Source: an uncultured archaeon (GTDB taxonomy: Archaea > Asgardarchaeota > Thorarchaeia > Thorarchaeales > Thorarchaeaceae). From it: a DNA stretch of 32,000 nt. Within the stretch, counting starts at the first letter, position 1; each line of letters opens with the position of its first letter. Shown here piece by piece: positions 9,018-15,745 of the stretch. The notes under the pieces are model-generated. The model saw nothing but the letters and a program-made list of their open reading frames with translations. It did no database searches and was not told where the DNA came from. The position numbers and the translations under genes are program-made. The DNA is taken from contig CAZYLT010000002.1 of the NCBI GenBank assembly GCA_964648855.1, positions 1 through 32,000 of the forward strand, given 5' to 3'.

Positions 9018-9284
9018 ATGGCAGAGAGCAAATCAAAAATCAAGAGCCACATGGAAAAGCGGTTCAAAGAGATTAAAGAAGAGAAACGATTGCCTCCGAG
9101 AGTTCAGATTGAACTGGAGAATAAGGTCACAGACTTGGATATCACCAAGAAAGAATTTGATGCCATTTGTGAGAACGTGATTGAGTCTTACGAACGCTCA
9201 CTGGTTGAGCCAGGTGAGGCTGTAGGCACGGTAGCTGCGCAAAGCATCGGAGAACCGGGCACACAGATGACGCTCAGGACATAA
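9018..9284 (+). pseudogene. rpoA2: orphan 5' portion (exon 1, 88 aa) of RNA polymerase subunit A''
   Basis: At the native operon position after rpoA1, with an SD. Ends [24 protein letters not shown]-stop, exactly at the intron position of the downstream copy. No matching 3' exon follows. Confidence 0.85.
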
Positions 9285-12200
9285 ACAAAGCATTCCAAAT
9301 TGCTCTTCGCGTCTCTATTCTCTTCATATTAATGAAGAACAAATGGCTTGGACCCCGCGTTATAATAGCACTACCATTTTCAGCTATAGGAAACGGTCAA
9401 ATTCCTAATGAAACACCAAGGCGAAATGAACAGGCCCTAGGATAATGTAGTTGATGAATACCATGATCTGCTTCTAATAACTCGCAAACGATAGTGCAGA
9501 ACGTTGCTTAGTGAACATAAGACCTTCTTCTTGTGCTGGTCATCAAAAAGTGGCAACTCGTTGTGCCGGTTGCGATGATGAAAACACCATTCCGTGCATA
9601 TGATGCTTTTATTCATGTATTGTATGCATATGGTTGGTATTTCAATTCGTCAAATAGCTCTTTATCCCCAAACCGCTCATTACGATGTTATGAGTTCTCA
9701 GAACCACTGAGGGTATACCTTTAGTATCATTGTAACCAACACAATCCACAGAGGTTAATCTATCAATGACTCCTGTGTGTAAACTCTCCGTAATCTCCTT
9801 GATTTTCCCAAGTCCACCCTTAGACTTGGGATTATTGTGCCTTTTTAGACACAATCTGGACAAATTGAAGAGAAAATAATGCACCCGAGTGGAAACTCTG
9901 TCGGCTTATCTCAGGACAATGAGAGGGGGCTTTCATTTGGATAGGAATACAAATGCGGAACGAACTCTATTTGAACTTCGTGCTAGTCATGAATCAGTTT
10001 TGCTACTGGTTCGGTTGGTTTTGGCAGACTCCTCCATCAAGAATATGGAGTGATTACTATGAGAAAGCTCCGAGAATTCAATGAACAAGGTGATAAGAGA
10101 AGCAAATTGGAACGCCTCAAAAGGAATATCCACTCTTGTATACTGACGGAAGAGGAAAATCTTGCATTACTTGACGAGCATAGCCGAGAAGAGAGTGTAC
10201 CAAGTTACAGGCAAGACAGAAAAGAGGGTGAGTCAACTGGTCAACATAATGAGATACGAGAAGTCACAGATCAGACTGCAAGCAAAATCAAGGCACAATT
10301 AACAGATGGCAGTGACTCGTTCTATTATTCAGAAGTTGAATCTAAAGGAGAGCTAGAAAAAGAGCCTTCAATATCAGAAAATTTCACACGAATTAGAACA
10401 CAAGACGATCCGACCATGACTCGCCTGTTGAATAATACCATTATATCAAAAACAAATGAACGCATTAGAATATCTATTCCTAATCCTCTGGGAGGATTCA
10501 CAATTGAGCTAGATGGCAGTTCCATTGAAATTGATGAAACAATAAGCGAAAAGAAGATTCGCGATATTTTTAGAAAGGCTCTACACCAATGCGACCTGAC
10601 ATATCGAAAGAGGAAGCGAGGCGGTTCCTACTATGTCTATAACAACGGCCTCTTTGATATCCACGAACAAGAGTATTTGCAGGAATCCATGTCCACAGTG
10701 CTCAGACTACGACATTCTTATTTCAAAACTGTTGAATCCATATTAACTAGTAAACCACCATCATTTCTAGGTAATCACTGGGGCTCATCACTCTATTCGC
10801 TTTTGGTTGAACCATTAGAAGGAATTCCTTCAGACCTTCAAAGCAGACTTTATGCAGACTTTGTGAATTCACTTCGTTTGGCAATCAAAAAATCAAGGAA
10901 TGAGCCTGCGTCGTTATCAATAGAGAATCTGTCTCATGACGAGTTAGTAGAATTCGCCAGTTCGTATTCAGAAGAAGATGAAATACTACATAAAAACGAA
11001 TTCTATTCCCAATTATCCCGGTATGAAGAGCCGGAAATAGTCTCGTTGAAGAATCAGGGAATCTTCTCGATTAATGAGGTGTTTGAAGATTTGTTGGATT
11101 CATTCATCCGCCCTTCTAACTCCCCATTTGAAGAGTCCTTATTGGATGAACTTTCCTCTTCCTTTCTGGACCGCCAATTGTCAGCATTATCATCTTGGGA
11201 ACGAGCTTTCGGAGATTCACCAAATTCAAAAAGAAGCAATTTCATCTTACGAGCCTTCAACATGGAAATGTCTTGGACAATAAGCATTCTACTGAGTGCA
11301 TTTTTCCTAAGAAATCGGGATTTTGCGCAATATAGATTCATCTCGGAATCTGAGTGGCTGAATAACAGTCCGCAGGACTGTTGGGCAATTATAAAAAGAC
11401 GCATTGCGAGGTTCTTGAGAGCAGAATGGAGAGATTGGGTTAGAAATCCGGTTGATATGCGTGGTGTGCTAGAATTTGAAACACGTTCACGTTTCAATGC
11501 GTTAGGTGCATATAACGACTTCTTGTTATCAACAAAAGAGGGTTCCGACCTACTTAGTCCATCTAACCTCACTTCCTTTTCTAAGGCAGATAGGAATGTC
11601 CGAAAGAAGATACTTGAACAGGCTTGCTCGACTCATCGCATATTCAGAAAAGAGGTTTTTGACCCATTCATCCAGCATAAACTTTCAGAGAGCAAGGCCA
11701 TTACGAAGTGGTGGCATTTGATGAATCAAAAGCCAGAAAGCTATATTGGCTTCACCATAATGCGGGCATGCCACGAGGGCTATAGAGAGTTTGTAGCAGT
11801 TTATGTGCCCAACCAAGGTGTTTGGATTTCCGGCAGAAAAGAAGAATCAAACTGGACCCCGATTGGCAATATGGGAATTGGGCAAGGCAAAGGAAATAGT
11901 CGCAGTGCTGCGAGTTCTGACCATTGGTCTTCATTTCATCGAAATACCACTTATGGACTTCCTCGAGCATGGTATTTCTCGGAAAACGATAGCGGAAAGT
12001 TCCACGTCGATTTCTTAGCGATGGCCTATCCACTTGCAGAAGCTCTGTTTACAGCCAAGGACTTACACGATGCTGAGAAAAGGCTTGCCGGCCCGAAAGA
12101 ACGAAGGTTGATTCAAAGTTTCTTCGCAAAAGACCGAAAGGAAGACTCTCCATCAGTTGGTGAAATGGTCCTTGTATCGGCTGATTCACTTGTATCGTCC

Positions 12201-14533: not shown

Positions 14534-15745
14534 ATGCCAAATAAGAAGATTGAGGACTACCAGGCCAAACGTTTCGAAGAAATGAAACAGGAGAAGAGGC
14601 TGCCCCCAAAGGTCTTGGATGAACTCATTGAAAAGGTCAGTAAAATTGACGATATATCAAAGAACGAGTTCGACGCTATCTGCACTACCGTCATAGAGTC
14701 ATATGAGAGGTCCCTAGTTGAGCCAGGCGAAGCAGTAGGAACAGTTGCTGCTCAGAGCATTGGTGAACCGGGCACTCAGATGACATTGCGCACATAACTA
14801 CATACATTTCGTATGTAGTGTGTTATTCACTATGCTGGGGTGGCTGAACTAAGCGTTACTCAGGGACTTCCACGACTGATTGAGATTGTGGATGCCCGGA
14901 ACAATCCGAGCACTCCAACTATGAAAATCCCTCTTGATTCAGAGATAGCAGGCGATCGGAAGGGAGCAAGAGACATTGCACGAAAAATCGAGATGGTACG
15001 GGTTGAGAGTGTTGCAAGCAATTTCTCTATAGACCTTATCCGACAAGCCATAGACATTCGACTAGATCCCGAACTTATGGAGGACAAGGGCCTGGAGGTC
15101 GAAGGCGTTGCGAAAGCAATCCAAGATAAAATCAAGGCCAAAGGTGAGGTAGAAGCAGGCGACAACGTAATCTATGTATATCCTGCAAGCGACACGCTTT
15201 CTGATTTACAGCGATTGAATGACAAAATCCGTGATATTAGAGTCAAGGGAATCGACGATGTTACTCATGTGGTCATCAGAAAAGAAGGCGATGAGTATGT
15301 TCTCTATACAGAGGGCTCCAATATCGAAGATGCCTTGGAGATAGAGGGAGTCGACCCTGACCGCGTTCATACAAACAATCTTCGTGAGATACACCAAATC
15401 TTGGGCATCGAGGCCACCCGCAATGCAATCATCAAAGAAGCTATGGACGTTCTCAATGAGCAAGGAATGGACGTCGATGTACGACATATCATTCTAGTAG
15501 CTGACATGATGACTGCTGATGGAACTATCCAGCAAATCGGTCGACATGGAATCTCTGGCTCGAAACACAGTGCTCTTGCCAGAGCAGCCTTCGAAGTTAC
15601 TGTCAATCATCTGCTAGGCGCAGGAATTACAGGTACGAAAGACCCTCTCAAGGGCATCACGGAAAATGTTATACTGGGGCAACTCATTCCTCTCGGAACA
15701 GGCTCAATAGACCTCCTAATGAACCCACACTCCAGCGGAAAGTGA
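14534..15745 (+). CDS. rpoA2: DNA-directed RNA polymerase subunit A'' (Rpo1C), join(14534..14795,14826..15745), 393 aa after intron removal
   Basis: Exon 1 ends QMTLRT; exon 2 reads (F)[24 protein letters not shown]...LGIEATR...[11 protein letters not shown]...[17 protein letters not shown]. Joined length 1182 nt, in frame. Confidence 0.93.
14796..14825 (+). other. 30-nt BHB-type intron in rpoA2 pre-mRNA
   Basis: AACTACATACATTTCGTATGTAGTGTGTTA. 9-bp stem ACTACATAC/GTATGTAGT, central helix GCAC/GTGT, bulges AT|A and TA|T. Unspliced frame has TAA and TAG. Confidence 0.85.

Follow-up and report, generated by a model that had tools for sequence, protein, structure and literature searches.

In the literature searched, the only confirmed archaeal intron of a messenger RNA (mRNA), that is, of a protein gene, was that of cbf5 in Crenarchaeota, a bulge-helix-bulge (BHB) intron that some lineages have and others lack (Watanabe 2002; Yokobori 2009, PMC2738675). 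The tRNA introns of Asgard archaea were reported to have been gained repeatedly by an unknown route, and the arrival of BHB introns at new sites was explicitly left open (bioRxiv 10.64898/2026.10.13.758758). The present analysis dealt with a window of 32,000 nucleotides (nt) from an uncultured archaeon of the Thorarchaeaceae (Asgardarchaeota; positions 1 to 32,000 of contig CAZYLT010000002.1, assembly GCA_964648855.1), in which rpoA2, the gene of RNA polymerase subunit A″, is interrupted by a multi-kb insert. The insert begins behind a displaced copy of the first exon (exon 1a), carries a second copy of that exon (exon 1b) and ends in a 30-nt segment, predicted to be a BHB mini-intron, directly before exon 2. 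The rpoA2 intron shares the patchy occurrence of the cbf5 intron and differs from it in its Asgard host, in the gene affected and in its position inside the trigger loop. It also differs in a relaxed motif without an outer helix, in forming the end of a foreign insert that supplies the upstream exon, and in that its splicing is predicted.

Other known systems resemble the rpoA2 locus in part. Archaeal rRNA introns with LAGLIDADG endonucleases and the systems of collaborative homing are also selfish DNA placed at conserved sites of essential genes and removed from the RNA; in cyanophages, for example, the gene of the free-standing endonuclease F-CphI lies beside intron-containing psbA, and the intron, which lacks an open reading frame (ORF), protects the target. 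At rpoA2 a large gene similarly adjoins an ORF-less intron that would protect its target site. In contrast to homing systems, however, no known endonuclease family was found, the ORF lies 5′ of the duplicated exon instead of in the intron loop, and the native exon was kept as a stranded copy and not converted, co-conversion being conceivable in at most one of three comparisons. Phage 21 and e14 (E. coli icd), elements targeting tRNA genes and the rps12 islands of the window likewise carry a synonymously diverged copy that keeps the target functional, and leave a partial duplicate at the far junction. Those elements recombine at an identical core, restore a seamless gene and have a recognisable integrase, whereas at rpoA2 the 5′ end was replaced, the junctions share about 4 nt and the join would need RNA splicing. 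Finally, the split tRNAs of Nanoarchaeum equitans have an exon encoded apart and use the same endonuclease and ligase pathway, but exon 1a of rpoA2 has no complementary leader with which to build a BHB and exon 1b would be joined in cis. The papers searched on Asgard mobile elements described no element of such kind, and what is new is that a BHB mini-intron, a replacement exon and a foreign insert that recurs are physically linked.

It is highly probable that a mobile insert took over the 5′ end of rpoA2. The whole account, in which host splicing would also remove the 30 nt, was given a probability of about 0.7. The layout, its recurrence, the native and foreign origins of the exons, the conserved RNA structure and the presence of splicing genes are shown by the sequences; the splicing itself and the entry route are inferred from them. 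The features concerned are as follows (window coordinates).

6346–9003, plus strand: rpoA1 (RNA polymerase subunit A′), native, upstream; Pfam Rpb1 domains 1–5; about 88–93% nucleotide identity to G001, a genome of the same genus
9018–9284, plus strand: exon 1a, the native 5′ part of rpoA2, displaced; 88 codons plus TAA; rpoA2 homology stops at ACAT (9279–9282)
9283–14825, plus strand: the whole insert, foreign, 5,543 nt, between ACAT and TTCAC of the Thr/Phe-His trigger-loop codons
9285–10058, no strand: left non-coding part of the insert; hairpin TCTTCAT/ATGAAGA at 9321–9338, not conserved in other elements
10059–14306, plus strand: orphan ORF of 1,415 amino acids (aa), or 1,418 aa when read from GTG 10050; the only gene common to all elements
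14307–14533, plus strand: AT-rich spacer 5′ of exon 1b, presumed promoter and leader of the rebuilt rpoA2
14534–14795, plus strand: exon 1b, foreign, replacing the native 5′ exon of rpoA2; 87 codons and base 1 of the Phe codon; ends CGC ACA U
14796–14825, plus strand: predicted BHB-type mini-intron, 30 nt; minimum-energy fold and covariation, 6 loci
14826–15745, plus strand: exon 2 of rpoA2, native; starts UU CAC UAU (F-H-Y-A-G-V, trigger loop); Pfam Rpb1_5 positions 95–265

Two first exons and a recurrent insert

An earlier note, made from the sequence of the window, had placed the N-terminus of Rpo1C (A″) in two ORFs, 9018–9284 (88 aa) and 14534–14797 (87 aa). Both were recovered, each matching positions 66–93 of the Pfam family RNA_pol_Rpb1_5 (E ~9e-14), and the two proteins aligned with 75% identity (E 3e-43). 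Recounting also bore out that the final 35 residues are identical while 22 of the 35 codons differ, all of them synonymously (nucleotide identity 80/105), that no internal stop or frameshift disables either copy, and that some 5.2 kb separates the two, the interval measuring 5,249 nt (9285–14533). The note had further stated that both copies end ACA-TAA at the start of an intron; the shared ending stood and the shared intron did not, since only exon 1b precedes the intron and exon 1a precedes unrelated insert sequence. Exon 1b, its TAA and exon 2 make up a single reading frame. The genome holding the window (G000), a metagenome-assembled genome (MAG) of 62 contigs, 94.6% complete and with 4.75% contamination, contains exactly two copies of exon 1 and a sole exon 2, which shows 98% aa identity to that of G001.

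Nucleotide identity between G000 and G001 was 86–93% across rpoA1, exon 1a (~90%) and most of exon 2. A phylogeny of the exons, which the earlier note had proposed as a check, was built on the last 159 nt of exon 1; it paired exon 1a of G000 with the intact gene of G001 (99/95) and exon 1b with the native allele of G004, a genome of another genus (g4) (95/88). In the same tree, exon 1a of G037 paired with G041 and that of L027 with G040, and exon 1b of the metagenome locus L026 paired with G006 (100/97). Copies of exon 1a clustered with native genes from the genus of their host; copies of exon 1b did not. The insert has a GC content of ~39–45%, compared with 47–49% outside it. Because of the tree groupings and the lower GC of the insert, exon 1a is regarded as the resident exon and exon 1b as foreign, having arrived with the insert, so that the RNA polymerase A″ of this cell would carry a horizontally acquired N-terminus. 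The model preferred in the earlier note, in which an incoming element supplied its own 5′ exon, captured exon 2 at the intron and left the native exon stranded, agrees with the tree, the GC content and the recurrence in relatives.

This recurrence was assessed in 86 genomes of the same family as G000, representing 16 genera. Most of them carry an uninterrupted rpoA2 of ~400 aa, the empty site that the earlier note had suggested looking for, and the gene was found interrupted in 4/86 genomes, belonging to 2/16 genera. The full order of rpoA1, exon 1a, insert, large ORF, exon 1b, 30 nt and exon 2 was also present in G037, L024/L025 and L027, and its right half in L026, which makes four other independent Thorarchaeota loci, the sources of the layout being an NCBI MAG (G037), two Joint Genome Institute (JGI) metagenomes and two Logan assemblies. 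Every relative of the large ORF with an assembled flank lies just 5′ of a second exon 1, the 30-nt insert and exon 2 (G037, L024/L025, L026, L027), and in G037, L024 and L027 a native exon 1 stands behind rpoA1, cut at the same codon boundary. Partial forms were observed as well: in G042 one contig carries exon 1 truncated in the same way and a second contig a large ORF with a frameshift, L041 holds a further partial form, and G007 has lost the large ORF and exon 1a and kept an element tail of ~290 nt similar to that of L027, exon 1b and the intron.

The elements measure 5.5 kb in the window, ~7 kb in G037 and ~9 kb, ~10.6 kb and >12 kb elsewhere; the ~10.6-kb insert carries a helix-turn-helix (HTH) regulator and an ABC transporter, and the >12-kb insert HerA/DUF87-like and KaiC-like ATPases. 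In their non-coding parts, blastn and tblastx revealed no similarity between the window insert and the other elements. A conserved motif, GAGCTTATCCAAATGGTTTTAT, occurs in the spacer 5′ of exon 1b in G037, L027 and G007 and is absent from the spacer of the window. Inside the G037 element, a 438-aa transposase-like ORF (L022, G037:C581, 8081–9397, minus strand) looked IS110-like by eye, and the rpoA2 element may thus itself be a target for insertion sequences. In L024, a contig of JGI 3300031699, an IS605-type TnpB/OrfB gene with an HTH partner lies between rpoA2 exon 2 and L30e (13901–15314) and is another insertion in the same operon. In G059, from a third genus, a fragment of the large ORF was found on a 2.6-kb contig and an intact, intron-less rpoA2 elsewhere in the MAG (C241 = L018, C340 = L030), which suggests either a population polymorphic for the element or an element able to reside at other sites.

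The target is the invariant FHYAGV site of an essential gene, and its occupation among relatives is patchy. In five loci the left boundary falls at ACAT or within one base of it, and the loci then continue with the unrelated sequences AAACAAAGC, TGTAACAAAAC, TGTCTGAG, CTGAAATAG and CCATAAAAC. The insert junctions show no target-site duplication and no att core: they share only ACAT (with AA in addition in the window), and the left ends differ between elements. On the right, exon 2 is native from its first codon in two comparisons (G037 with G041, L024 with G059), and for this reason the foreign DNA is taken to end at the intron, its right limit being the predicted 3′ splice site. Between G000 and G001, 17 of the first 23 codons of exon 2 differ synonymously, against roughly a third to 40% elsewhere, a tract that may reflect a short conversion or chance and that was absent from the other two comparisons. 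The RNA just 3′ of exon 1a (9269–9340) folds better than shuffled controls (z -3.8), with a GACGC/GCGUC helix that encloses the exon end and a 7-bp hairpin at 9321–9338; this fold was not conserved in the other elements.

The 30-nt segment and its predicted splicing

In the minimum-energy fold of the window sequence, the central helix GCAC (14790–93)/GUGU (14820–23) is followed by the bulge AUA (14794–96) and by a 9-bp intron stem (14797–14805/14811–14819) with the loop AUUUC (14806–10); together with a second bulge, UAU in the window (14824–26) and AAU elsewhere, this gives the geometry of a BHB. Seven versions of the segment were found, six of which were used for covariation. Three parts are invariant across versions: CGCACA-UAA on the left side, UGUG on the right and, between them, the loop AUUUC and the pairs that close it. 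The stem remained paired in 98% of the cells, five of its nine pairs being altered on both sides, none of 500 shuffles equalled its score, and slid registers collapsed.

Removal of 14796–14825 gives ACA-UUU-CAC, that is, Thr-Phe-His, and the intact relatives all read MTLRTFHYAGV, with ACA TTY CAY at the insertion point. The canonical cut, after the second base of each 3-nt bulge, excises 30 nt and yields UUU/UUC (Phe) followed by His in 7/7 loci, the sequence left being ACAU joined to UUCAC or UCCAC. Moreover, all seven intron-bearing exons end in CGC ACA, and CGC was used in none of the 19 copies that no intron follows, 14 native and 5 displaced, which have AGA, AGG, CGA, CGT or CGG. Because of this distribution (7/7 against 0/19), the codon choice at the end of exon 1b appears to be held by pairing with the intron in the GCAC/GUG helix and would be hard to explain without an RNA structure.

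The genome G000 encodes two EndA paralogs (PF01974, with scores of 111 and 78.5 bits) and a single RtcB (597 bits). The genes of the two paralogs lie at C6:63923–64177 and C4:31164–31424. Asgard EndA was reported to be of the (αβ)2 type with an L1 loop and a broad specificity that accepts relaxed motifs (PMC5829648), and two paralogs are consistent with such a broad-specificity, two-subunit enzyme. Removal of the 30 nt by host splicing is therefore a prediction well supported by comparison between loci.

A scan of 8900–15900 with Rfam gave no match. A dispersed family of mini-introns was considered and rejected, as the covariance model of the segment (R1) matched only the rpoA2 site, in G000, G007 and G037, among the 86 family genomes; pattern scans of metagenome and genome collections added L041 alone, all other matches being known loci. 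An intron native to the host before integration was likewise discarded, since G001 has no intron and uses AGA instead of CGC, CGC ACA travelling with the foreign exon. Translational bypassing of the T4 gene 60 type was rejected, no landing codon before UU(C/U)-CAC matching the ACA take-off. Readthrough of the stop or an altered code was rejected as well: it would add 10 residues to the trigger loop, and rpoA1 itself ends in TAA. An intein was rejected in view of the stop directly after Thr and of the size of the insert, 30 nt with one or two stops.

Proposed course of events and competing explanations

According to the favoured account, a foreign element inserted exactly at the Thr/Phe-His trigger-loop codons of an essential RNA polymerase subunit, A″. 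The entry route thought most likely is a break at ACAT^T in the intron-less gene, with the right side healed by homology with exon 2 or by selection for a precise junction and the left side by non-homologous joining, the latter being proposed because the left ends are unrelated between elements. Such an entry would resemble homing, collaborative homing above all, except that the native exon stays behind. The right end of the element would bring the large orphan gene, its own rpoA2 exon 1 with the upstream region and the 30-nt terminal segment, and this segment and the exon end GCAC-AU would fold into a relaxed BHB. Host EndA and RtcB would then remove the 30 nt from the mRNA, producing an intact A″ with a foreign N-terminus, and the native exon 1a, behind rpoA1, would be cut off from exon 2 and give at most an 88-aa fragment. 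After insertion the exon of the element would be the only working 5′ exon, so that the right end of the element could not be lost, and G007, in which the tail, exon 1b and the intron stay, would represent the end state. Because G007 lost exon 1a and kept exon 1b and the intron, exon 1a is dispensable and the exon of the element is not. These events may show how introns enter archaeal protein genes, and since comparable stages were found (empty sites in most relatives, elements of 5.5 to >12 kb, the G007 remnant), intron gain can be tested in this lineage.

Several observations weigh against this account. The exon 1b copies form no single clade in the tree, so that the element would carry exons from different host genera. 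The outer exon-exon helix (h) of the motif is absent or has only 2 bp, and for that reason the motif is classed as the relaxed HBh′ form of BHB. The central helix opens with a G-U pair in the window and with a G-A mismatch in 5/6 loci, those other than the window, which leaves three Watson-Crick pairs. The sole conserved ORF has no recombinase, transposase or known nuclease domain in Pfam, NCBIfam, PHROGs or PADLOC. Lastly, exon 1a is intact in all five loci, with few non-synonymous changes relative to its relatives, a pattern that an old pseudogene would not be expected to show; it points either to recent insertions or to an 88-aa fragment that the cell tolerates or uses.

Because the exon 1a copies stay intact, two models that would employ them keep some probability. 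In one of them the 30 nt are not spliced and A″ consists of two polypeptides split in the trigger loop: an N-fragment from exon 1b, exon 1a or both would end at TAA, the C-fragment would be re-initiated just before HYAGV, and the hairpin would serve as a DNA-level feature of the element end or as a re-initiation signal. RNA polymerase large subunits do tolerate natural splits, A′/A″ being an example, TAA directly follows ACA in 7/7 loci, the 30 nt keep the frame, and the intactness of exon 1a in 5/5 loci would be sensible if its 88-aa peptide were used. However, neither ATG, GTG, TTG nor a ribosome-binding site precedes HYAGV, where AUU or AUC alone could serve as an in-frame start; a start at the next GTG would remove the catalytic His, the model would also sacrifice the conserved Phe, and it would leave unaccounted for both the CGC ACA ending and the base-exact EndA geometry of bulges and helix, all of which makes a split subunit improbable. 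The other model, one of two that the earlier note had offered, holds that the cell uses both first exons: long-range or trans BHB splicing would connect exon 2 to the operon transcript that ends in exon 1a, and two A″ isoforms would result. BHB trans-splicing exists for split tRNA genes in Nanoarchaeum, and exon 1a is intact, lies directly behind rpoA1 and ends at the exact base where exon 1b is cut. The isoform model was nevertheless not supported. Exon 1a pairs poorly with the 3′ splice site, as that note had observed: it ends AGG ACA (GGAC-AU) in the window and GAAC, GUAC or AACU elsewhere, so that two to three positions pair with GUG(U/A) and GCAC occurs in none of five copies. The bases that follow it cannot pair with the 3′ half of the 9-bp stem, the cofold reached -9.1 against -15.1 kcal/mol with a geometry that is not BHB, no sequence 3′ of exon 1a is conserved across the five loci, and G007 has no exon 1a; two isoforms are consequently held to be decidedly improbable. 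Two further ideas on exon 1a were dropped. A degenerate remnant of intron and exon 2 behind it was sought by local alignment (shuffle p 0.1–0.6) and by blastn and tblastn, which gave no extended homology, and splicing of exon 1a onto the large ORF was rejected as the distance and the intervening genes vary between elements. In G042 (L028, G042:C438, ~3434–3480), 27 unrelated bases after the truncated exon 1a are followed by TTCCACTA, the first 8 bases of exon 2, a match that may record another history of the junction and is not significant alone (shuffle p ~0.1).

A classical integrative element, using a tyrosine or serine recombinase or being IS200/IS605- or Helitron-like, would also place foreign DNA here; exon 1b would form part of its attachment site, the hairpin would mainly be a recognition site and repair of the mRNA a side effect. 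IS200/IS605 and Helitron ends have such hairpins, and the insertion is specific in orientation and site, makes no target duplication and has its hairpin 8 nt from the right end; in addition, the same window contains duplications of the rps12 3′ end, as is usual for elements that substitute the end of their target. Against this, no integrase, HUH or helicase domain was found in the sole conserved ORF, nor an integrase in the precomputed Pfam lists of L024, L026 and L027. The junctions share at most ACAT, the conserved hairpin is at the right end only, and a stem that covaries around an invariant loop is more readily explained by a folded single strand than by a duplex bound by protein, so that such an element is considered unlikely. 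A misassembly, in which the rpoA2 alleles of two strains were joined in one contig, could be suspected from the fragmentation and contamination of the MAG and from the G059 case, where the fragment of the large ORF stands on a separate short contig and rpoA2 is intact elsewhere. The same order of parts was, however, assembled independently from different samples and with different pipelines, for elements only 40–53% identical, and there is a single exon 2, with 5.2 kb of unique sequence between the copies of exon 1; because these independent assemblies agree, a chimeric contig was ruled out as extremely improbable.

The large ORF and the surrounding operon

The large ORF (P0001) has relatives of 1,300–1,400 aa, only five in all among 5.8 billion proteins; when 1.8 billion representative proteins were searched with a profile, members of the family came back and nothing more distant. 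The ORFs are 39–53% identical to each other and, wherever a flank was assembled, lie beside exon 1b of an interrupted rpoA2. No match was obtained in Pfam, NCBIfam, PHROGs, PADLOC or the PDB sequences. The language-model neighbours of residues 1090–1418 were all PD-(D/E)xK families, at 0.82–0.86, short of the trust level. The AlphaFold models were of poor quality, the predicted local distance difference test score (pLDDT) being 45 for residues 370–1418 and 41 for residues 1090–1418, and a structure search retrieved only a helical hairpin at a meaningless Z <7. The order of secondary structures in this low-confidence model could fit a PD-(D/E)xK fold. A nuclease role is thus a weak lead, with about one chance in three of being correct, and the family of ~1,400 aa is a candidate new DNA-targeting enzyme.

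On this basis a more specific reading can be put forward tentatively, as a doubtful one: that of a selfish, nuclease-bearing cassette, of a type not described before, that creates introns, breaking an essential gene at an invariant site, inserting with a spare upstream exon and relying on the tRNA-splicing machinery of the host to clear its 30-nt end out of the mRNA. If it were true, the host would depend on the exon of the element, which amounts to a genetic addiction, and decay of the cassette, as in G007, would leave a free-standing mRNA intron.

The window operon serves transcription and translation and comprises rpoB (2910–6344), rpoA1 (6346–9003), rpoA2, L30e, a NusA-like KH protein and S12. 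Standard gene callers split rpoA2, an essential gene, into two ORFs.

Elsewhere in the same phylum, the rpoA2 match of G025 falls within a 1,303-aa open frame that may be a fused A′–A″ gene, and that of G028 is in two pieces with a gap, possibly another insertion. Within the window, the full rps12 gene (16705–17148) is accompanied by extra copies of its 3′ part at 23534–23794 and 30286–30480, with 95% protein identity; the first of them starts KQPNSAIRK, and each follows several kb of cargo. Such duplicates bear the signature of serial insertions, each substituting the end of the gene it targets, and they share their operon with the rpoA2 insert.

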